Source: an uncultured Victivallaceae bacterium
GTDB lineage: Bacteria > Verrucomicrobiota > Lentisphaeria > Victivallales > Victivallaceae
Reading direction: 5' to 3'
Length of the DNA: 45,092 nt
Assembly (NCBI GenBank): GCA_964515915.1
Contig: CAZEXM010000003.1
Location: 1 to 45,092, forward strand
The notes under the pieces are model-generated. The model did no database searches. It was not told the DNA's origin and worked only from the letters and a program-made list of their open reading frames with translations. The position numbers and the translations under genes are program-made. This document shows, piece by piece, positions 3,432 to 45,092 of this stretch (position 1 is its first letter; the number at the start of each line of letters is the position of its first letter).

Positions 3432-4688
3432 ATGGAAGCGGTTAAATTTATTCATTGCGCGGACTTACATCTGGGCAGTCCGTTCAAGGGAATCAGCAGC
3501 GGCAACGCGGCTCTGGGTTCGGCTTTGGCGGCGGCGACTTTCGATGCGTTCAGGAATATTATCGACCTGGCGCTTGAGCGTAAAATAGATTTCCTGCTTA
3601 TCGCCGGTGATGTTTTCGACAGCGAAGACCGCAGTCTGCACAGCCGTTTGTTTTTCAAAAAACAACTCGAACGACTGGAAACTGAAAACATCAAATGCTT
3701 CATTGTCTGCGGCAATCATGACCCGCTCTTATCCTGGTCGCAGGCAGTCGAACTTCCCGGAAATACCCTTATTTTCGCCGCCGGCAAAGCACAGACTTTT
3801 ATTGTGGAACGCGCCGGCCGGGACTTGGCGGCAATTTGCGGAACCAGTTTCGGCAGCAGTAAAGTCAAAACCAATCTGGCCAGGAAATTCAAGCGGGAAC
3901 GCTCTGATATTCCAGCCATTGCCTTACTGCATGCCAATATTGAATGCGGTTCTCATGCCAATTACGCTCCCGCAAAATTGAGCGATCTGGAGAAAAGCGG
4001 TTTTGATTACTGGGCGCTGGGACACGTTCATTCTTTCGCGGTCTTGAACAAAGCCTGCCCGGCGGTGGTTTATCCCGGCTGTCCGCAAGGCACGAGCCCG
4101 CGCGAAACCGGAGAAAAAACCTGCTGCTTCGTTCAACTGCAAAATCATTCCGACCCGCGGATAGAAGCGGTCGTCGTCGATGAGATTCGTTACGCGTTCA
4201 AAGAAGTGAATATATCCGGCATAGATACTTTCGAGGATTTATTTGCGACTGTAAATGAATGTTGTGACAAAATCATCCGCGAAAACGGCAAGCGCAAAAC
4301 CGTACTGCGCTTGAAACTTTCAGGGCGCGGCAAATTGAATAAGGAATTGCGCGATGAAGCCGAAAACGATGAGTTGGCGGAACGTTTTGAAAGCGAAACA
4401 GACGCCTTTGGCGACCAGCTTTTTTTAAATCGCGTCGAGCTTTCGACCCGGGACGATTATGCTATGGAAAATTTAAATCAGGACAGCGGTTTCATCGCCG
4501 ATTTACTCGCCTGTTCTGACGAAATGCTCGAAAATCCTGAAGAAATGGAAAAGCTGGAAGCGGAAATGAAACTGATTTATAAAAAATGTCGTGCCATGCC
4601 GCGTTTCAGCGACGATGAACTGCGCGAAATTATTGAAGACGCGAAACATCTGGTTCTGGATAAACTCCTGGGGGAATACGGCAAATGA
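3432..4688 (+). CDS. SbcD/Mre11-family metallophosphoesterase (DNA repair exonuclease, YhaO-like)
   Basis: Calcineurin-like phosphoesterase motifs in order: HCADLHLG, GDVFD, GNHD, LLHANI, GHVHS. It overlaps the next gene by ATGA (4685-4688). Confidence 0.85.
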   Translation: MEAVKFIHCADLHLGSPFKGISSGNAALGSALAAATFDAFRNIIDLALERKIDFLLIAGDVFDSEDRSLHSRLFFKKQLERLETENIKCFIVCGNHDPLLSWSQAVELPGNTLIFAAGKAQTFIVERAGRDLAAICGTSFGSSKVKTNLARKFKRERSDIPAIALLHANIECGSHANYAPAKLSDLEKSGFDYWALGHVHSFAVLNKACPAVVYPGCPQGTSPRETGEKTCCFVQLQNHSDPRIEAVVVDEIRYAFKEVNISGIDTFEDLFATVNECCDKIIRENGKRKTVLRLKLSGRGKLNKELRDEAENDELAERFESETDAFGDQLFLNRVELSTRDDYAMENLNQDSGFIADLLACSDEMLENPEEMEKLEAEMKLIYKKCRAMPRFSDDELREIIEDAKHLVLDKLLGEYGK

Positions 4689-7279
4689 TTATCAAAAACA
4701 TACATATTGATAATTACGGAAAATATTCCGCCCGCTCATTTGGAGGGCTCGCCAAAGGCGTTAACGTTATTTTCGGCCCCAACGAACACGGCAAGACAAC
4801 TTTACTCGAATTCGTCAGACGAATGTTTTTCGGTTTTCCGCGAAAAGATCTTAACAAAAATCGTTTTGAGCCGATTAACGGCAGCAATCCCGGCGGCAGA
4901 TTGATTTGCACCCTTGATTCCGGCGCGGAGCTCACTATTGAACGTACAGGCTGGAAAAAAGGCGGGGCGCTCAAGCTTGATTCCGTCGACAGCAGTTCGC
5001 GCGAATTAAATGAATTACTACGGGCGGGCGAATTGTTTTATCACAATGTCTACGCCATCACCATTGAGGAACTTTATTCGGTTGACTCCCTCAAGGGTGA
5101 AGACATCAAGAGTCGTATTTACGGGGCCGGGCTGGATTTAGGCGGCGTATCGCTGGCACAGGTGAAAAAACAATTTAAGGACAAGGCGGAAAAAATATTT
5201 AAACCCGGTGGCTCAAAACAGCGGATTCACGAGCTGAACGAGCAAGTTAAAAGTTACGAACAGCAAATAAAAACCGCCGATGAAAATCTCAATTATTATG
5301 AGGAAATTATCGCTGAACAAAAACGAAACGACGCCGACATAGAATCTTTACGCGACAAAATAAAAAAAATCTCCGGGCTGAATGAATTTATAGATTACGA
5401 AGCTTTGACCCGGAAATTAGAAAAGATTCCCAATGTTCCGCCCGTAAGCCAGGAAGACATTGAGGAATATCTGGAATTGAGCGCTGAGCTGAAAGCCGCT
5501 TCCGGTAGTTTGGCCAAAAGCAAGGCAAAACAGCTTGAACTGCGGGAAAAAATAAAGGCCGTTAATATAAACTCCGCACTGCTTGAACTCGGCCCGGAAG
5601 TTACCCTGCTCGAACGCTCATCCGAACTTTACAGCAGCGACAGCGAAGACGCGAAAAAACAAAAAGGGCAAATTGAAAAACTCAAAAAACAATCAGCTGA
5701 AACCAGGCGGAATATCGCTTCCCTCTGGCGGGAAGATAAAATTCCGGATAAATTCAGTTTTAATTTAGAGTTCATAAGCCGAACCAATGAATTTGAACGG
5801 GAATTCAGCGACTTAAGGCAGCAGAAAATAAGCTCGGACATCCTGCTCCAGCAACAAACGCAAATTTCTCAAGCCGCTCCGCCGAAAAATGTATTGTCCC
5901 TGCTGATTATCGGAATACTTGATTTAACGATGATTGCCACCGGTATATTAATAAACTCACCCGCCGTAATTTTAATTGCTGTAATCATCTGCATTCCTAC
6001 AGCTATTGCGGCGGCGCAAAGTTTCAACGAGGCGGCATCGGCTGACGATAAAGTTAAAACAGACCCTTTTGAAGAAAAACTCAACGAACTTGAGATTCGC
6101 TGGAAAGATTTTCTCAGGCAAAAATTTTTCAAGGATATATTAGCTCCACGGGATTTATCGGCCGGTGCTGAAATATATAAAAATTATTTGAAAGATCAAA
6201 GCTCAATGGCTGCTTTGCAGCAGGAATTAAATGACAAAGAGCTCCGGCTGAGTAATATTGATGAAACACTGCGCAAAGTCTCAACAAGGCTTGACAAACA
6301 AAGTTTGACCACGGACGCCCTGGCGAATATTGAAATTATTTCCAAAATTTTCAGACAGAATGAAAAAGCTTCAGTTGAATATGGAAATTTGCTCTCGGAA
6401 CTGAAAAAACTTGAATCCAGTCTGGATTCGGCCCGGAACGAAGTAACAAGCCGCGAATCCGCACTCAAGGACTTGCGGGCTAAATTTCAGGCGAAAGACT
6501 TAAAGGATTTGCGGCGGATGCTTGCCTGCGGCCGGGAACGCAAAAACTTAAATGAAAAACTTGAAGAAAGCGGGAAACGGCTGAAAAATATTTTCGGGCT
6601 GAACGCAGAAATGGACGCTATCCGCAGCCAGTTGGAAAATTTTTCGCATGAGCATGCCGAACAGAAAGAGTCTTTGGAAAAAGACTTAGATAAATTGAAG
6701 CGCCGGCAGGGAGAATTAACTAACGAACAAAAGAACCTTGTTTCGGCGGATAAGCTTGTTGTCCTGCATAACGAACATGAACGCTGTATCCAGCAGATTC
6801 GAAATTGTGCCTTACAATGGGGCAAATATAAAGCCGCGGAACTTTTGATCAAGCGCGCCGTGAATAAATACGAACAGGAGCGGCAGCCGGAAGTTATCAG
6901 CCAGGCAACGGAAATATTCAAGCGGCTGACTAACGGGCTTTATGTAAATATCCGCAAACCCGCCGAGTCTGATGATTTATTACTGGTGGGCGTCAATGGC
7001 GCGACCCGCAAAGTGCTCGAACTCAGCCGCGGCACCCGCGAACAACTTTATCTGGCGATGCGTCTGGGTTTGATAGAACAATACGAAGAAAAAACCGAAA
7101 GCCTGCCGCTTATATTTGACGATATTTTGGTTAATTTCGATAAAACCCGTCTCAAGTCAGCGGTGGAGACGATTTTCAAGTTTGCCGGGAAGCGGCAGGT
7201 AATTATCTTAACCTGCCATGAAAACATACATTCCCTGCTTCTCAAATATGGAGCCAATGATATCTCATTGACAAAATAA
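4685..7279 (+). CDS. SbcC/Rad50-like AAA ATPase with a central transmembrane hairpin (YhaN-like)
   Basis: Walker A GPNEHGKTT, a long Lys/Glu-rich coiled coil, signature-like LSRGTREQLYLAMRL, Walker B LPLIFDDILVNFD and an H-loop ILTCHE. The hydrophobic block LLIIGILDLTMIATGILINSPAVILIAVIICIPTAIAAA is encoded at about 5891-6020. Confidence 0.85.
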   Translation: MIIKNIHIDNYGKYSARSFGGLAKGVNVIFGPNEHGKTTLLEFVRRMFFGFPRKDLNKNRFEPINGSNPGGRLICTLDSGAELTIERTGWKKGGALKLDSVDSSSRELNELLRAGELFYHNVYAITIEELYSVDSLKGEDIKSRIYGAGLDLGGVSLAQVKKQFKDKAEKIFKPGGSKQRIHELNEQVKSYEQQIKTADENLNYYEEIIAEQKRNDADIESLRDKIKKISGLNEFIDYEALTRKLEKIPNVPPVSQEDIEEYLELSAELKAASGSLAKSKAKQLELREKIKAVNINSALLELGPEVTLLERSSELYSSDSEDAKKQKGQIEKLKKQSAETRRNIASLWREDKIPDKFSFNLEFISRTNEFEREFSDLRQQKISSDILLQQQTQISQAAPPKNVLSLLIIGILDLTMIATGILINSPAVILIAVIICIPTAIAAAQSFNEAASADDKVKTDPFEEKLNELEIRWKDFLRQKFFKDILAPRDLSAGAEIYKNYLKDQSSMAALQQELNDKELRLSNIDETLRKVSTRLDKQSLTTDALANIEIISKIFRQNEKASVEYGNLLSELKKLESSLDSARNEVTSRESALKDLRAKFQAKDLKDLRRMLACGRERKNLNEKLEESGKRLKNIFGLNAEMDAIRSQLENFSHEHAEQKESLEKDLDKLKRRQGELTNEQKNLVSADKLVVLHNEHERCIQQIRNCALQWGKYKAAELLIKRAVNKYEQERQPEVISQATEIFKRLTNGLYVNIRKPAESDDLLLVGVNGATRKVLELSRGTREQLYLAMRLGLIEQYEEKTESLPLIFDDILVNFDKTRLKSAVETIFKFAGKRQVIILTCHENIHSLLLKYGANDISLTK

Positions 7280-9673: not shown

Positions 9674-10963
9674 TTAAGAAAGAGCTTTTTTAACGGCATC
9701 GACAGTCGCTTCAATCACCATTGGAGCATTGGCGTAAGTTCCCTTGATACCGACTGAACCGAGTTCATCTTTATGGTAACCTATAACCGCGTCCGGGTCT
9801 TTCAGAATATTGCCGGTCAAAATACCAACAACGGTTGCATCGGATTTGATAACGCCCGCGTCAACAAGTTTTTTGGCTCCGGCAACGGAACAGCATGACG
9901 CCGGTTCGGCGCCGATACCGGCCGCGTCAACCATGGCTTTGGCGTCCATAATTTCCTGTTCGCTAACGTCCTCGACGGTTCCGCCGGACCATTTTATGCC
10001 GCGTAAAGATTTTTCCCAGGACACCGGATTCCCGATTTTAATAGCGGTGGCGATAGTGTCGGGATTTTTGACTGCCGCGTACCCGGAACCTTTTTTCCAC
10101 ATTTTAGACAGAGGAGCTGAACCCGCCGCCTGAATTACCGCTATACGCGGGATTTTGTTGATGATACCAAGCTCATATAATTCCTGCATACCCTTGCTCA
10201 AAGCAGTATTGTTACCCAGGTTTCCGCCCGGAATAACAAACCAGTCCGGCACCTCCCAGTCAAGCTGCTGGAGGACTTCGAAACCAATGGCTTTCTGGCC
10301 TTCGATACGGAAAGGATTGATTGAGTTTACCAGATAAATATTCAATTCGTCACAAACTTGCCGCACCAGTTCCATGGCAACATCAAAATTGCCCGTAATC
10401 TGCAATGTTTTACCGCCGAAAGCGAGAGCCTGCGCGAGTTTGCCGTATGCAATTTTGCCTTCGGGAATGAAAATAACTGAAGGTAATCCGGCAATTGCCG
10501 CGTAGGAAGACATACTGGCACTGGTGTTTCCGGTGCTGGCGCAGGCGACAGAAGCGGCCTTATAAAATTTTGCCGCGGTAATTCCGCAGGTCATGCCGCG
10601 ATCCTTGAAACTGCCGGTAGGATTCTCGCCCTCATGTTTGAGATAAAAGTTCTTCAGCCCGGCGTATTCGCCGGCTTTGCCCGCGTCGTACAAACGGGTA
10701 TTGCCTTCCTGGCGAGTAACGATGCAGTCATCTTCGCAGTCAAAAATAAGTTCTTTGTAACGCCAGACGCCGGAGGCGTAAAGTCCGCGCTTAGTTCCCC
10801 AGCGCGCTTCCCAGAGCCGTTTAAGTTTCCGCCCGTCAACGGACGACAAATCGCGCCGCATATCAAGCGTTCCGCCGCATGTACAATTATAACGGACCTT
10901 TTCCAGATCGTATTTTTTATTGCAGCGAACGCATTCCAACCAGGCTTTTATCATGTTAGCCAT
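9674..10963 (-). CDS. thrC: threonine synthase
   Basis: N-terminal Cys-rich zinc-ribbon-like segment, PLP-lysine motif NPTGSFKDRG, and STGNTSAS and GNLGN blocks typical of ThrC. Confidence 0.9.
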   Translation of the reverse strand: MANMIKAWLECVRCNKKYDLEKVRYNCTCGGTLDMRRDLSSVDGRKLKRLWEARWGTKRGLYASGVWRYKELIFDCEDDCIVTRQEGNTRLYDAGKAGEYAGLKNFYLKHEGENPTGSFKDRGMTCGITAAKFYKAASVACASTGNTSASMSSYAAIAGLPSVIFIPEGKIAYGKLAQALAFGGKTLQITGNFDVAMELVRQVCDELNIYLVNSINPFRIEGQKAIGFEVLQQLDWEVPDWFVIPGGNLGNNTALSKGMQELYELGIINKIPRIAVIQAAGSAPLSKMWKKGSGYAAVKNPDTIATAIKIGNPVSWEKSLRGIKWSGGTVEDVSEQEIMDAKAMVDAAGIGAEPASCCSVAGAKKLVDAGVIKSDATVVGILTGNILKDPDAVIGYHKDELGSVGIKGTYANAPMVIEATVDAVKKALS

Positions 10964-11066
10964 AATTTTACCGTGCTCCAGAATATTTGTATATAGTTAA
11001 TCAAATAACTTAACAGTCATTAGAGGCAATTGCAAAAGTCTCCACAAGAGATTTTTGATTTTGAGC

Positions 11067-12152
11067 TTATTTATTTAATGCTTCAAGTTGACGTTCGCAG
11101 TCGATGGAGATAATCGGATCAAGAAGAATGTCTAATTCGCCCTCGAGAACCCGCGGCAAATGATAAAGCGTGATGTTGTAACGATGATCTGTTACGCGGT
11201 TTTGAGGATAATTATAAGTCCGGATGCGTTCGCTCCGGTCGCCTGTTCCAACTTGGGCACGTTTGTCGGCAGCCTGTTTGTCGGCTTCTTCCTGCTGCTT
11301 GACTTCAAGCAGGCGGGCGCACAAAATACGCATAGCTATTTCGCGGTTGCGATGTTGAGATTTTTCCTGCTGGCTGACCACGCATACGCCGGTCGGAATA
11401 TGGGTTATACGGACTGCCGAGTCAGTAGTATTCACGCACTGGCCGCCCGGGCCGGAAGCCCGGAATACGTCAACCCGTAATTCCGCGGGATCTAAATTGA
11501 GTTCAACTTCTTCAGCTTCAGGCATTACTGAGACCGTTACCGTGGAAGTGTGAATACGTCCGCCGGATTCCGTTGCCGGCACACGCTGTACCCGGTGCAC
11601 GCCGCTTTCGTATTTCATGCGCGAATAAACGCTGTCGCCCGATAATGAAAACGCCACTGATTTGATTCCGCCAAGATCGCTGGCGCTTTGGCCGAGAACT
11701 TCCAGCTTCCAGTTTTTGCTCTCGGAATAATGTGTGTAAAGACGTAAAAGTTCACCCGCAAACAGGGCGGCTTCATCACCGCCGGCGGCCGGCCGTATTT
11801 CGACAATGATATTACGCGCGTCGTTGGGATCGGGGGGAAGCAGCGCCAATTGTATGCCGCTTTCAAGTTTTTCGGCTTTAATTTCTAAAACCTCGAGGTC
11901 GGCACTAATCATTTCCTTCAGTTCTTCGTCATCCTCTTCCTGCAGCAGTTCTTTGTTTTCCTCTATTTCCACAAGCGCGCTTTTCCAGGCTTCAAAGTCT
12001 TTAAATAAATTATCAAGCTTGCGGTGTTCCCGGGAAACAGCTTTAGCCACAAGCGGCTTGCTGTAGATTGACGGATCGGAAAGGCGTTGTTCGAGTTCCT
12101 TAAAGTGATCTTTAAGGCCGTCAATATATCCTGAAATTTCCTGTGGAGTCAT
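11067..12152 (-). CDS. prfA: peptide chain release factor 1
   Basis: GGQ motif (SGPGGQCVNTTDSAVRITHIPTG) and the RF1-type P-A-T tripeptide (RVPATESGGRIHTS). I use the start at MTPQEIS (12152), preceded by GGGAGAG. The ORF-track start at 12197 looks like an extension. Confidence 0.9.
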   Translation of the reverse strand: MTPQEISGYIDGLKDHFKELEQRLSDPSIYSKPLVAKAVSREHRKLDNLFKDFEAWKSALVEIEENKELLQEEDDEELKEMISADLEVLEIKAEKLESGIQLALLPPDPNDARNIIVEIRPAAGGDEAALFAGELLRLYTHYSESKNWKLEVLGQSASDLGGIKSVAFSLSGDSVYSRMKYESGVHRVQRVPATESGGRIHTSTVTVSVMPEAEEVELNLDPAELRVDVFRASGPGGQCVNTTDSAVRITHIPTGVCVVSQQEKSQHRNREIAMRILCARLLEVKQQEEADKQAADKRAQVGTGDRSERIRTYNYPQNRVTDHRYNITLYHLPRVLEGELDILLDPIISIDCERQLEALNK

Positions 12153-12233
12153 CAATCTCTCCCAATAAACCGGAATTTTAATAAAAAACGCCTGCAAAAC
12201 GAGTATAATTCGTTTGCAGGCGGAGTAAAAAGT

Positions 12234-12443
12234 TTAAGAATTGTCTTTTTTCGCGTAACGCTGACGGAAGCGTTCCACCCGGCCGGCGGTATCGACAAAT
12301 TTCTGCGTACCAGTGAAAAACGGGTGGCATTTGGCGCAAATACCAACTTTAGTTTCAGGTAAAGTTGATTTAGTTTCCCAGGCCTGTCCACATGCGCAAG
12401 TGATTTTCGCATCACCGTATTTTGGATGTATCTTCTTTTTCAT
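12234..12443 (-). CDS. rpmE: 50S ribosomal protein L31
   Basis: MKKKIHPKY ... CACG ... [10 protein letters not shown] ... GRVERF is the canonical zinc-binding L31. Confidence 0.9.
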
Positions 12444-12588
12444 TTTGAACTACCTCGATTTTAAGTTATATTCAATATATATAATTTCGTTATATTATTA
12501 GACAATCAAAGCTATTGAATATACTGTAATTGTAAAAAAAATCAAGAGTTAAATCGAGAAAACATAAAAAAAAGAGGAGTTTTAAATC

Positions 12589-13089
12589 ATGAGCTCAAAT
12601 CGTCCCCTCTGGGCGCCATGGCGCATTGAATTTATCCGCGGCGAAGAAGAAGACAGTTGTTTTCTGTGTGATAATGAACAATATAATCCCCGGTCAGGGG
12701 AGGAAAACCTCATTATTTACCGCGGCAAAAACTGTTTTGTAATGATTAACCGCTTTCCTTACAATTCGGGGCACATGTTGATTTCGCCTTACCGGCACGT
12801 CGGGGATTTAGCTGATTTGACAGCGGAAGAACGTCACGAATTAATGGATTTGTGTGTTGACTGCAAAAAAGTTTTACAGACGGCAATGGCTCCTGATGCT
12901 TTCAACGCCGGTTTCAATCTCGGCGCCGCCGCGGGAGCGGGAATTGCCGATCATTTACACATGCACATAGTACCGCGCTGGGGTGGAGACACTAATTTCA
13001 TGCCGGTGTTGGCGGACACGCGCTGCGTCCCGGAAGCAATTGAAAAAACAGCGGAACTCCTGCGCAGCGCATGGGAAAAAGAATTTTAA
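12589..13089 (+). CDS. HIT family hydrolase/nucleotidyltransferase (Ap4A phosphorylase-like)
   Basis: Histidine-triad motif HLHMHIVPRW. AGGAG lies upstream of the ATG. Confidence 0.8.
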   Translation: MSSNRPLWAPWRIEFIRGEEEDSCFLCDNEQYNPRSGEENLIIYRGKNCFVMINRFPYNSGHMLISPYRHVGDLADLTAEERHELMDLCVDCKKVLQTAMAPDAFNAGFNLGAAAGAGIADHLHMHIVPRWGGDTNFMPVLADTRCVPEAIEKTAELLRSAWEKEF

Positions 13090-37342: not shown

Positions 37343-37455
37343 GCGTCATCGGACCGGATCCTATGCACTGGTCTCCTGCTAACCGAGTCAGATGGGGAAC
37401 CAAGCAGCTCCATGCAATGAGCCAGGTGCTGTAGGCCAATCTGTTTCGATGGCGC
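37343..37455 (+). ncRNA. ffs: signal recognition particle RNA, small (4.5S) type
   Basis: GAGUCAGAUGGGGAACCAAGCAGC matches the conserved domain IV motif (E. coli GGUCAGGUCCGGAAGGAAGCAGC). The GGAA tetraloop is kept, and the stem change UCC/GGA to UGG/CCA is compensatory. The closing helix is gcgtcatcg (37343-37351) with cgatggcgc (37447-37455), followed by a T8 run. Confidence 0.85.
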
Positions 37456-40487: not shown

Positions 40488-40688
40488 GCGGCATATTATG
40501 AGATTGGGGTGAAAGGAAAAACTTTTTGTTTTTTTTAATATAACGAGGCCGACGTATCGGCTCCTTTCCCCCAAAACCCCCTTTTCCTTTTCAAAAACTT
40601 TTGGGATACCAAGTTCACTCAGGCAACAAGTTGCCTGTTTAAACTTGGGAGTTTGTGTAAAAATAGAGAAATAGTGGAGACGCTTAAT

Positions 40689-41297
40689 ATGGTTGAATTC
40701 AAATATCCAGAGGCTCTTGAGGAAATTATCATTCATCTGAAACGTTTGCCGGGCATCGGCAGGCGGACGGCTGAACGTCTTGCCCTTGCCATGCTCAAAT
40801 GGAAAGGCGAAAAAATTATAGCATTTGGTGAATCTCTGCAAAAATTACCTTTGACGGTAACTTTTTGTCCTGAATGCGGTGGTCTCGCCGAAAACGACGA
40901 AAAATGTTTAATTTGTCAGGCACCCGGCCGCGATACAAAACTGCTTTGTGTGCTTGAAGATTTCAGTCAGATAATGTCTATAGAAAGCAGCAGTTATTAC
41001 AAAGGCCTCTATCATGTTCTCGGCGGTAAACTCAGCCCGCTTCAAAACCGTTCCGCCGCAGACTTGAATATCGATACTTTGCTCCAGCGCATCGACAAAC
41101 TCGAGATTCGGGAAATAATCCTGGCGCTCAGCCCTGATGTTGAAGGCCAGGCTACTGCAGTATATATCGCGAATTTGCTCAAAGATAAAGCAGTTAAAAT
41201 TACCCGTTTGGCGCAGGGGCTTCCTGCGGGTGCGGATATTTCTTTTGCTGATGCTGCGACTATTGGGGCTGCGCTCACGGGAAGAAGAAATATATAA
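40689..41297 (+). CDS. recR: recombination protein RecR
   Basis: HhH LPGIGRRTAERLA, the Cys4 finger CPECG...CLICQ and a Toprim block (LCVLEDFSQIMSIE). I use the start at MVEFKYP (40689). Confidence 0.9.
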   Translation: MVEFKYPEALEEIIIHLKRLPGIGRRTAERLALAMLKWKGEKIIAFGESLQKLPLTVTFCPECGGLAENDEKCLICQAPGRDTKLLCVLEDFSQIMSIESSSYYKGLYHVLGGKLSPLQNRSAADLNIDTLLQRIDKLEIREIILALSPDVEGQATAVYIANLLKDKAVKITRLAQGLPAGADISFADAATIGAALTGRRNI

Positions 41298-41320
41298 AAG
41301 CCGGATGTAACGGCCCCGTG
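41278..41320. repeat. outer inverted repeat, left arm (includes the last recR codons and stop)
   Basis: cgggaagaagaaatatataaaagccggatgtaacggccccgtg is the near-exact reverse complement of 42831-42872. Confidence 0.85.
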
Positions 41321-41327
41321 ATCCAAC

Positions 41328-41518
41328 GGCGGGCAGCGTTGGTCGAAATCTCCAATTTCGAAACTTAAGCGGCTTGCCGCGCATTAGACCAATTCCGCTC
41401 TCGAAAAGCGAAGCTTTCAAAAAATAAGCTTGCGATATTTTTTTAAAGACCTGAGCGGTCGAGCTCTCCCTCAACTCTATATTTCCCGCGTGAGCGTTTT
41501 TAAAATCCCTTGCAGGGG
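41328..41518. repeat. inner inverted repeat, left arm
   Basis: It is the reverse complement of 42546-42737. The 71 nt at 41328-41398 are perfect. The remainder is roughly three-quarters to four-fifths identical by eye, including tatatttcccgcgtgagcg. Confidence 0.85.
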
Positions 41519-41831
41519 ATTTCCCTCCACTGCCCCCGGCAACGCCGTGGGTATTATGCCCCCGGCGAGTCGTTCCCTGTAAGGGAACTTCAATATTCCG
41601 CACAACTCTATAAGCTTTTACTTTTGATTACTTGAACAATAAACTTAATGGAAGTATATATAATTAAGCTGAAAAATTGTCATAATATTGTCAGTAAAAT
41701 CAGGGAAGGAAATTGTTATGAAAACTTGGATATCTATAATGTTTTTAAACTGATTCCATTAAGGAAATGTATGAATGCCAATCAAAGCTAGTACACTATA
41801 CAGCTTAAATGTTCGCATTGTATATAAAAAA

Positions 41832-41885
41832 TGTAGCTCAAGCGTCTCGCTTGAATATCTTCACAACCGAGACGGTTGTGCTACA
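41832..41885. repeat. 54-nt palindromic element, copy 2 (diverged)
   Basis: tgtagctcaagcgtctcgcttg ... cacaaccgagacggttgtgctaca is the same element as 2729-2782, with a few substitutions in each arm. Confidence 0.75.
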
Positions 41886-41983
41886 TTAATTTATGAAAAA
41901 AATACGAAGTTTTAAATTTTACAGTATACTAGATGGGCTCTTTAGTAAAATAGAAAACAAGAATAAATTGGTAACTAAAAGTA

Positions 41984-42469
41984 ATGAATAAAAAGTTTCT
42001 TGATAAATTTAAAATTTGTGATGAAGAGATGCTCTTAGAATTTTTTATTTTATATTCGAGATTAGAATATGCATTAAAACGAACTGGCTTTTTAAAAAGT
42101 ACAGATAATGCACAAGCAGATTGGGATGATTTTATTTCAAATATTAAAGATAAGTTCGATAAAAACAAAAATGAAAAACTTGAAAAAGCTGTAAAATATT
42201 TATTAGAATATCCAGCAAAAAAGCAAGTTACTAATGGAAAACTTGATTTTGTGTCTTGCCCAACGACAAGTTCAGGTTCTGACATAATTCGCCTTCGTCA
42301 CTGTATTAGAATTACAAGAAATAATTTGTTTCATGGCGGTAAATATTCTCAAGGTTCAGTTGAAGGAGCTGAGAGAAATAAAGAACTTCTTGAAAACAGC
42401 ATTGTTGTCATCAAAGAATTTATTAGGCTAAACCGAAAGGTTAATAATGCATTTGGGAACATGGAATAA
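41984..42469 (+). CDS. HEPN-domain-like protein (putative RNase toxin / abortive-infection-type effector)
   Basis: 161-aa ORF in AT-rich DNA. RITRNNLFHGGK contains the R-N-x-x-x-H (R-x4-H) motif that defines HEPN active sites. The composition looks helical (EFFILYSRLEYALKRTGF). A weak A/T hairpin follows the stop (42465-42489). Confidence 0.55.
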   Translation: MNKKFLDKFKICDEEMLLEFFILYSRLEYALKRTGFLKSTDNAQADWDDFISNIKDKFDKNKNEKLEKAVKYLLEYPAKKQVTNGKLDFVSCPTTSSGSDIIRLRHCIRITRNNLFHGGKYSQGSVEGAERNKELLENSIVVIKEFIRLNRKVNNAFGNME

Positions 42470-42545
42470 TATTGTTAATAAATATTATTATTTCAAGCGC
42501 ATACCAATAATACTGTAACTAAATCACTTGCATCTTTTTGTAGTT

Positions 42546-42737
42546 CCCTTGCAGGGATTTTAAAAAACGCTCACGCGGGAAATATAAAGTTGCGGAAAAG
42601 GCTCGAACGTTCGCATCTTTTCAAAAAATATCGCTTCGCTTTTTTTGAAAAGCCTCACTTTTCGAGGCGGAATTGGTCTAATGCGCGGCAAGCCGCTTAA
42701 GTTTCGAAATTGGAGATTTCGACCAACGCTGCCCGCC
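42546..42737. repeat. inner inverted repeat, right arm
   Basis: It is the reverse complement of 41328-41518. The perfect 71-nt core is at 42667-42737. Confidence 0.85.
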
Positions 42738-42830
42738 GCCAAACAAGTTTGGATTTATTATGACTGACTTACATACTGCAATCATAATTGCTCGAAAAAG
42801 TATATCCATATATCGAAGGCGACGTTCGCC

Positions 42831-42872
42831 CACGGGGCCGTTACGTCCGGCTTTTTTATATTTTTCTTCCCG
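42831..42872. repeat. outer inverted repeat, right arm
   Basis: cacggggccgttacgtccggcttttttatatttttcttcccg is the reverse complement of the recR 3-prime end and its immediate downstream sequence. Confidence 0.85.
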
Positions 42873-42946
42873 AAAGCCTTAGTTCTATTGCTTGTAAAAA
42901 CACATATATGCAGTAATTTAATAAGTAATAGAATAAAATGATTTAA

Positions 42947-45092
<2,146 letters not shown>

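Follow-up and report, generated by a model that had tools for sequence, protein, structure and literature searches.

The spacer between recR and gyrB in a 45,092-nt stretch of DNA from an uncultured Victivallaceae bacterium (contig CAZEXM010000003.1; the whole stretch is hereafter called the window) holds the longest inverted repeat of that window by a wide margin, and no other inverted repeat there approaches it. Judged from sequence comparison, this 1.67-kb spacer, which runs from the recR stop (41297) to the gyrB start (42971), appears to be a layered palindrome of old resident modules rather than a recently formed foldback. The two arms are copies of a structured six-helix module of about 150 nt, named Y, which in related genomes occurs as a pair without cargo, singly on the left or on the right, or not at all. 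The explanation that we favour, tentatively and with a little less than even confidence, is that an old, locus-resident pair of structured terminator or 3'-end modules insulates an insertion hot spot between recR and gyrB.

Nested inverted repeats frame an AT-rich core

The host is represented by a Victivallales (Lentisphaerota) metagenome-assembled genome (MAG), and its RecR is 81-89% identical to RecR proteins of Victivallales MAGs (81-87% among the Victivallales and Victivallaceae MAGs of the species-representative genomes). Two nested pairs of arms were recovered by both a repeat search and blastn. The inner arms (41327-41519 and 42545-42738) agree at 173 of 197 positions (88%, 7 gap columns; blastn E 1e-60 against the 45-kb window) and contain a perfect 72-nt tract (41327-41398 and 42667-42738), and the outer arms (41278-41331 and 42820-42872) agree at 87% over 54 positions (E 2e-12). 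An earlier note, made from the letters alone, had described both pairs, and the coordinates and identities that it gave proved right to within 1-11 nt. It had also described an AT-rich core between arms of ordinary composition, and the GC content is indeed 23-34% in the core (~41600-42540) and 40-54% in the arms and flanks. It overlooked an asymmetry: an 82-nt AT-rich insert lies between the inner and the outer arm on the right side only. Its picture of a single-gene cassette calls for a qualification: the list of open reading frames (ORFs) contains a sole intact gene in the core (41984-42469, 161 aa), and the core also carries remnants of a Sel1-type gene and a 145-nt palindrome. The features of the locus are given below; relatives' contigs carry L numbers, and R1 is the covariance model of Y described in the next section.

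40689..41297, plus strand: recR, 202 aa (Pfam Toprim_4, RecR_HhH, RecR_C); its last codons and stop lie within the left outer arm.
41278..41331, unstranded: left outer arm, made up of A/T tracts and the small hairpin 'A' (GCCG-GATGTAA-CGGC); 87% complementary to 42820-42872.
41317-41297, minus strand: terminator-like site in the left outer arm, facing recR (terminator scan).
41320..41464, plus strand: left module Y, six helices, helix 2 loop CTCCA, conserved segment GAAACTTAAGCGGC; 140.1 bits with R1; includes the 72-nt tract (41327-41398) shared without mismatch with the right arm.
41464..41505, unstranded: left 'Z' layer CTCTCCCTCAACTCTATATTTCCCGCGTGAGCGTTTTTAAAA, pairing with 42558-42600 (84%, repeat search).
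41493..41593, unstranded: left 'M' module, three serial hairpins by folding, H1 TCCCTTGCAGGGG (41506-41518), H2 CCCCCGGCAACGCCGTGGG (41533-41551) and H3 TTCCCTGTAAGGGAA (41573-41587).
41594..42544, plus strand: AT-rich core, 23-34% GC, a decayed remnant homologous to the fuller L116 island.
41676..41761, plus strand: remnant of a Sel1-type gene, promoter region and 5' end, 71% to L116 1387-1475; the gene is intact in L116.
41713-41740: sigma-70-like site in the Sel1 remnant (promoter scan).
41788..41932, unstranded: 145-nt palindrome replacing the interior of the Sel1-type gene; DNA fold z-score -7.5.
41928-41988: 3' remnant of the Sel1-type gene.
41984..42469, plus strand: HEPN-like ORF, 161 aa, intact; all-helical small family with the invariant motif RNN[LF]FHGGK.
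42511..42571, unstranded: right 'M' module, reduced to one hairpin TCCCTTGCAGGGA (42545-42557) with GTAG just upstream; homologous to L008 7002-7049 and 7105-7131.
42558..42600, unstranded: right 'Z' layer, inverted-repeat partner of 41464-41505.
42601..42745, minus strand: right module Y, 132 bits with R1; left half of helix 1 replaced.
42739..42819, unstranded: right-arm insert, 82 nt, AT-rich, with a small CCAAAC..GTTTGG hairpin.
42808-42781, minus strand: weak promoter-like site in the right-arm insert (promoter scan).
42820..42872, unstranded: right outer arm, hairpin GGCGACGTTCGCC (42818-42830), then hairpin 'A' and a T-run.
42834-42854, plus strand: terminator-like site in the right outer arm, just 5' of the gyrB promoter region (terminator scan).
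42883..42970, plus strand: gyrB promoter/leader region, conserved and alignable in all relatives; gyrB (identified by Pfam) starts with the ATG at 42971.

The earlier note had taken the outer arms for a single bidirectional terminator split in two. Rather than sharing one split stem, they are two small hairpins, each complete in itself and each with its own T-run on the outward-reading strand. In both, a stem-loop containing GC precedes a T-run on the transcribed strand, and both were picked up by the consensus scan on the strands listed above, which makes them terminator-like by the consensus criterion for intrinsic (Rho-independent) terminators.

No transposase, integrase or invertase was detected in Pfam scans of 20 window ORFs, in line with the earlier note, and the ORFs beyond these 20 are syntenic housekeeping genes. 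No direct repeat indicative of a target-site duplication was recognisable at any layer boundary, where A/T runs or the palindromic TTTTAAAA can mask short ones. Rfam gave no match to the spacer at gathering score (41200-43000 yielded only chance-level matches, E >= 1), and ARAGORN found no tRNA or tmRNA. An assembly artefact was excluded, as the arms are imperfect and the same modules lie beside recR, gyrB or the HEPN gene in independent assemblies of relatives. Two further candidates were rejected. The two TCCCTnnnAGGGA hairpins are spaced by ~68 nt in a CRISPR-like manner, but the 'repeats' have just ~13 nt in common, and the Rfam family CRISPR-DR17 matched with E = 6. Integron attC sites have R''/R' core sites (RYYYAAC ... 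GTTRRRY), lie in direct orientation at cassette boundaries and are accompanied by an integrase; here, as read from the sequence, GTT...AAC lies inside one M hairpin rather than at both ends of a site, the copies are inverted and no integrase was found.

Each arm is a copy of a conserved structured module

The nature of the arms was established by comparison with about 12 related Victivallales recR-gyrB loci, which were taken from species-representative genomes, metagenomes and contigs encoding close RecR homologues. Y copies were aligned (alignments A3-A5) and modelled as covariance model R1. Searching 399 kb with R1 returned the six known copies and one new copy (in L116), the next-best scores being 17.7 and 10.9 bits; Y was absent from L001, L006, L117 and L121 in this search. 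The seven copies come from five genomes (two each in the window and L007, one each in L059, L125 and L116) and score 119-171 bits. In their alignment (A6), 97.7% of the cells are standard pairs and 16 of the 38 pairs have changed on both sides, a degree of pairing and covariation matched by none of 500 shuffles (slid controls pair at 34-45%), to be read with the caveats that A6 was fitted to R1 and that the copies are related. The stem of helix 2 differs in nearly every copy (TCGAAAT/ATTTCGA, CGCTAAT/ATTAGCG, TCGACCAT/ATGGTCGA, CGCTCGT/ACGAGTG), and six of the seven retain its loop CTCCA. No Rfam family corresponds to Y, which would be an additional structured motif for that database.

Y is 70-80% identical from genome to genome, in comparisons where recR and the gyrB 5' end agree at 75-87%. 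Since Y is thus conserved like the neighbouring coding genes, whereas the ybaB-recR spacers of the Y-bearing genomes do not align with one another, it appears to be under purifying selection, which implies a constrained element and not decaying junk. Its polarity is fixed: the hairpin-A end points outward from the slot in every copy, and a hairpin with a T-run on the outward-reading strand is present in all six copies that could be checked (those in L007, L059 and L125 were read directly).

The 72-nt perfect tract stands against 81% identity in the rest of the arm, a distribution with a chance probability of ~3e-5. Because such a tract is improbable by chance in arms that otherwise differ this much, it is best explained as a trace of gene conversion between the two arms. 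Crossover between inverted repeats inverts the DNA between them, so that arms which recombine make inversion of the core mechanistically possible. Under this explanation, already raised in the earlier note, the ~240-bp arms would recombine through RecA or through an invertase encoded elsewhere, flip the 1-kb core and switch the HEPN-like gene between sense and antisense with respect to recR read-through. The perfect tract would then record a recent exchange, and an off state would be of advantage to a toxin-like gene that stands alone. The 20 scanned ORFs include no invertase, though, the repeats of typical invertons are much shorter and more perfect than these arms, and the orientation is the same in L116, the sole relative with this island. 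We regard such a switch as quite improbable; it would be compatible with the insulated slot rather than exclusive of it.

No second copy of Y, of the modules Z and M or of the alternative arm X of L008 (see below) was found outside the recR-gyrB spacer in 187 kb from ~14 related contigs, and the hairpin motif of M is restricted to this spacer. The arm modules had no DNA match in plasmid or phage collections, and scans of viral contigs for the patterns of M, Y and the 58-nt palindrome described below produced chance matches only. The further copies of the arms for which the earlier note had suggested a search were thus not found in this DNA, which covers a small, syntenic part of each genome.

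The spacer alternates between filled and empty states in relatives

The alleles of the recR-gyrB spacer in relatives were as follows.

L009: ~85 bp before the conserved gyrB leader begins, occupied by a single, simple hairpin terminator that is bidirectional; no Y.
L122: 168 bp from recR to gyrB; no modules.
L126: 168 bp; no modules (8 places examined of 12 contigs with this RecR).
L123: 179 bp, reading as a long hairpin that has collapsed (hairpin A, then the helix B loop, then an inverted hairpin A); no Y.
L124: 337 bp with other hairpins; no Y.
L007: ~450-nt palindrome (1015-1465, 75%) homologous to the window arms, with a ~100-nt central hairpin and no gene.
L059: single arm, next to gyrB, with a left half of the L008 type joined to it; no cargo.
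L125: single arm on the recR side; the cargo is an IS-like DUF1670 element (IS, insertion sequence).
L008: a different arm type, 'X', around the same three-hairpin M as in the window and a 65-codon ORF remnant.

The empty sites for which the earlier note had proposed to look therefore exist: spacers lacking Y measure 168-337 bp between called genes (L009, L122, L123, L124 and L126), and filled ones measure 500-2300 bp (the window, L007, L008, L059 and L125). Within one related species, a check for polymorphism across eight contigs found the short allele only. Y occurs as a cargo-free pair in L007, on the left only in L125 and on the right only in L059, and the genomes that bear it are scattered across a crude tree.

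The contents of the slot vary as well. They comprise the HEPN island (in the window and, with three genes, more fully in L116), an ORF remnant without a family match (L008), an IS-like unit (L125) or nothing (L007 and L059). In L125, two tandem DUF1670/HTH genes (292 and 281 aa; 10797-12640) of normal GC occupy the recR-gyrB slot and are bounded by a ~18-bp inverted repeat, AGGGCAT[T/C]TGTCCGGT; the unit is IS-like, and the DUF1670 proteins might be its mobility or regulatory genes. The M module occurs in different frames, the left M of the window being 75-78% identical to both inverted copies of L008 (6710-6803 and 7126-7030).

Because the L007 palindrome encloses no cargo and single arms occur, the arms were not created by insertion of the cargo. 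This bears on the earlier note's suggestion that the 3' flank of recR was duplicated in inverted orientation when foreign DNA entered a palindromic terminator, for instance by template switching or snap-back repair. Its palindromic-terminator part draws support from relatives, where a bidirectional hairpin (L009) or a long A-B-A hairpin (L123) stands alone at the site, and the outer arms do mirror the last codons of recR. The match to these codons is mostly one of a purine run with a pyrimidine run, however, and a pyrimidine-rich stretch lies 3' of the hairpin in all relatives. Creation at the moment of insertion is contradicted by a palindrome without cargo (L007), cargo with one arm (L125) and one arm without cargo (L059), and the 12% divergence of the arms with an internal perfect tract fits old copies and conversion instead. 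We consider this origin very improbable.

A non-autonomous foldback element of the MITE (miniature inverted-repeat transposable element) type, also put forward in the earlier note, is unlikely, yet it accounts for a good part of the data. Y and the outer hairpin would then form a ~190-bp terminal inverted repeat (TIR) moved by a transposase encoded elsewhere, with L007 as the bare element and the window copy as one with nested insertions, including the HEPN passenger. The long TIR-like arms with fixed outward polarity, the core without a transposase, the filled and empty sites among relatives, the cargo-free palindrome of L007 and the nested architecture all agree with it, as does the exact break of the contigs L057, L058 and L061 at the recR stop, as would be expected at repeats. 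What speaks against it is the lack of an identifiable target-site duplication, of a transposase in the window and of a second copy of Y, X, Z or M in the 187 kb, the viral contigs, the plasmids or the phages, together with single-arm alleles on either side and coding-level conservation with 16 compensatory pairs.

Two observations concern the 3' end of recR more generally. The contigs L057, L058 and L061 end 0-15 nt past the recR stop, and five Logan contigs of another relative (L128, L129, L130, L132 and L133; group L128-L133) start 136 nt 5' of recR; assemblies seem to break systematically at repeats flanking this gene. In the more distant relative L010, where gyrB is not adjacent within the DNA examined, a different element of ~165 nt (6608-6775), bounded by the 18-nt inverted repeat CTAGCAGYCTGTCGGACT, follows the recR stop directly; palindromic elements of unrelated kinds are likewise attracted to the 3' end of recR.

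The core is the remnant of a larger island

The 2.7-kb contig L116 encodes the closest homologue (59%) of the window ORF within an island of 17-37% GC with three genes, namely a 427-aa gene on the minus strand, a Sel1/transmembrane gene of 182 aa and the HEPN-like gene. A Z-like layer (2469-2504) begins no more than 7 nt after the HEPN-like gene, and Y on the minus strand and the end of the contig come next. Window positions 41676-41761 correspond to L116 1387-1475 (Sel1 promoter and 5' end), and 41928-42469 correspond to L116 1915-2462 (Sel1 3' end and HEPN-like gene), in the same orientation. Given this homology, the window cassette is an eroded remnant of a larger island. Identity between the window and L116 is 71-77% over island and arm alike, which suggests that the island was already framed in the common ancestor or derived from related donors.

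The 145-nt palindrome that stands where the Sel1-type gene had its interior is related to sequence elsewhere in the window. Its centre (41830-41888) is a degenerate 88% copy of a perfect 58-nt palindrome, AATGTAGCACAAGCGTCTCGCTTG...CAAGCGAGACGCTTGTGCTACATT, located at 2727-2784 in AT-rich intergenic DNA (DNA fold z-score -11.5), which looks like a dispersed palindromic repeat of host type with a GTAG-like 5' end.

A further hairpin unit of 27 nt, AATATAACGAGGCCGACGTATCGGCT, lies in the ybaB-recR spacer (40537-40563); it shares 96% identity with part of the L008 right arm (7175-7201) and resembles the left end of the L059 spacer, as a member of a small recurring family of terminator-like hairpins. 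Such units could also explain the locus differently: palindromic units like the repetitive extragenic palindromes (REPs) and bacterial interspersed mosaic elements (BIMEs) may have piled up 3' of recR, foreign DNA may have landed among them, and the large palindrome would be incidental. Small GC-rich hairpins (GSCGR-N-YCGSC with a T-run) that recur in the window, L008, L059 and L124 with their order and orientation shuffled, the copy at 40537-40563 and the 58-nt palindrome copied into the cassette fit that account. It would explain the outer hairpins and the 58-nt palindrome, but not Y, with its 150 nt, six helices and fixed polarity and its restriction to this locus in the DNA searched, and we hold it to be decidedly unlikely as an explanation of the whole.

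The remaining gene encodes a HEPN-like protein

The 161-aa ORF has no match in Pfam, NCBIfam or PADLOC. A word-indexed search returned 28 relatives, and an exhaustive profile search returned 2334 clusters at 50% identity (E <= 1e-3). Across 27 sequences the motif R112-N-N-x-F-H117-G-G-K (x = L/F) is invariant and has the Rx4H form that falls within the Rx4-6H criterion for HEPN domains; further invariant residues lie in an N-terminal SRLEYALK-like helix. The AlphaFold2 model is all-helical (pLDDT 85.8). An HMM search against PDB, like Foldseek, gave no significant match, and the HEPN models were touched weakly by few relatives (HEPN_Apea by 3 of 27, best E 0.018; CARF_HEPN by one, E 0.011). 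A HEPN-like identity is thus plausible, not established, and the protein is probably an RNase of the defence or toxin type.

Members of the family adjoin SMC-like ATPases (SMC_N/AAA_23), an HNH-like gene or another Rx4H protein, and among the members P0002-P0173 some (P0090 and P0122) are fused to DUF6884. The family is also found on 28 plasmids and four E. coli phages, including small Enterobacteriaceae plasmids, Rhizobium plasmids and positions among E. coli phage tail genes. Plasmids, phages and ATPase or HNH neighbours together give it the profile of accessory or defence cargo. The window gene is solitary, and the neighbours of other members are missing here. No inverted-repeat frame was found around distant HEPN homologues (L001-L006). 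In L121, a 226-aa protein with its own Rx4H motif (RNALAH; 5119-5799) is encoded downstream of a HEPN-like homologue, so that two HEPN-like genes stand in tandem behind a 1272-aa AAA_23 ATPase.

A possible insulated slot between recR and gyrB

Under the explanation that we favour, the outer hairpin and T-run beyond each Y would terminate outward-running transcripts. The left copy would shield recR from antisense transcription, for example of the minus-strand gene in an island of the L116 type, and at the right copy transcripts from the slot, the HEPN mRNA among them, would stop short of the gyrB promoter. The recR-gyrB site may be a preferred landing place, and the slot between the facing Y copies would repeatedly have gained, lost and exchanged foreign DNA in this clade. 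The window slot holds the remnant of an AT-rich island in which the Sel1-type gene was gutted by a host palindrome and one intact HEPN-like gene was left. Selection on the module and recombination between its copies would keep the arms alike. Of all this, the sequence comparisons demonstrate the repeat, the structure, covariation and fixed polarity of Y, its cargo-free and single-copy occurrence, the changing cargo, the conversion tract and the decay of the island, whereas the insulating or 3'-end function, the preference for this landing place and the RNase nature of the HEPN-like protein are inferences.

Several points weigh against this explanation. The roles of Y as terminator and insulator rest on a consensus scan and on geometry, and the conservation of the six-helix body is left without an explanation. 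The strand signal of Y amounts to 5 G-U against 1 A-C after removal of spurious cells, and the fold energies are likewise indecisive. Templated (quasipalindrome) correction can also yield compensatory changes in DNA palindromes without selection. The 187 kb searched for Y copies all belong to the same syntenic neighbourhood, so that low-copy dispersal elsewhere is still possible, and the description of Y as old depends on a crude neighbour-joining tree of ~980 nt. The L116 locus was inferred from a contig of just 2.7 kb, and the HEPN assignment of the cargo drew no match from Foldseek.

An alternative explanation, which we consider rather unlikely, is that Y is a new structured element whose role goes beyond termination. 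It could be the recognition end of an undescribed, hairpin-dependent system that swaps cargo at a fixed slot, and this would be why the same frames hold different cargo and the same M hairpins occur in different frames. In another variant the two copies would act as a complementary RNA pair: the recR 3' untranslated region (UTR) would read Y and the cassette 3' UTR its complement, forming a duplex of <= ~190 bp (88% matched, 72 bp perfect) that would be processed by RNase III and couple or silence the toxin-like HEPN gene.

Comparison with known systems

Overall, the locus shares features with MITEs, mobile insertion cassettes (MICs), REP/BIME units and integration hot spots, yet it does not fit any of them in full. 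MITEs are defined by TIRs, stable folds and filled or empty sites, and BIMEs are mosaics of small palindromic units (PMC3184786). Similar to MITE and foldback elements such as ERIC, Correia and Nezha (PMC3184786), the locus has long inverted arms with a stable predicted fold in an intergenic position at a gene 3' end, lacks an internal transposase and is filled in some relatives and empty in others. It differs from them in that no target-site duplication or dispersed copies were found, single arms occur, the arm is a 150-nt six-helix unit conserved like the flanking genes, and the interior extends to 1 kb (at least 2.5 kb in L116).

MICs (PMC4337579, PMC5444012) likewise carry a passenger gene between inverted repeats and lack a transposase; they end in the short TIRs of a known IS and have direct repeats on either side, neither of which was recognised here, and the recR-gyrB frame differs from them in existing also without cargo. 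REP/BIME and SPRITE elements (PMC3184786) resemble the locus in their small GC-rich hairpins with T-runs 3' of genes, in an order and orientation that vary between relatives and in the likely effect of the small hairpins on transcript ends. Y is much larger than these and locus-specific in the DNA searched, and of the small hairpins one extra copy was seen (40537-40563).

Core-gene integration hot spots, which gather defence or accessory genes, share the fixed position between housekeeping genes and the variable AT-rich content. Here, unlike in those, the slot is framed by a conserved mirror-image structured module, and we know of no such frame at other integration hot spots. By analogy only, the omega interposon also has a gene between inverted repeats that carry terminators, and rRNA operon stems cut by RNase III also have long complementary flanks, which could here pair in a read-through transcript. 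The novelty suggested by these comparisons is an insertion slot framed by conserved, structured palindromes, so far confined to one clade.

Neighbouring observations

Two other features of the window were recorded. Adjacent Metallophos (418 aa) and AAA_27/SMC_N (864 aa) genes at 3432-7279 form an SbcD/SbcC-like pair. Nucleases of the SbcD/SbcC type attack long DNA palindromes, and the pair therefore bears on the tolerance of the long recR-gyrB palindromes. Positions 37352-37449 encode an ordinary bacterial small signal recognition particle RNA (Rfam RF00169, 54 bits).

Significance

As this locus illustrates, when long inverted repeats enclose a foreign gene in a bacterial genome, neither a transposon nor a side effect of insertion has to lie behind them; here selection would have maintained the arms as an old element, and what turns over is the cargo. 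The HEPN-like family to which the present cargo belongs is large (2334 clusters at 50% identity), has no Pfam model, is borne by plasmids and phages and occurs in defence-like neighbourhoods. Palindromes of this kind appear to break short-read assemblies at the recR stop, concealing variation in metagenomes. If it is true that the frame insulates, or helps to load, a slot between two essential genes, it would represent a new way in which a genome safely accommodates accessory and defence genes.

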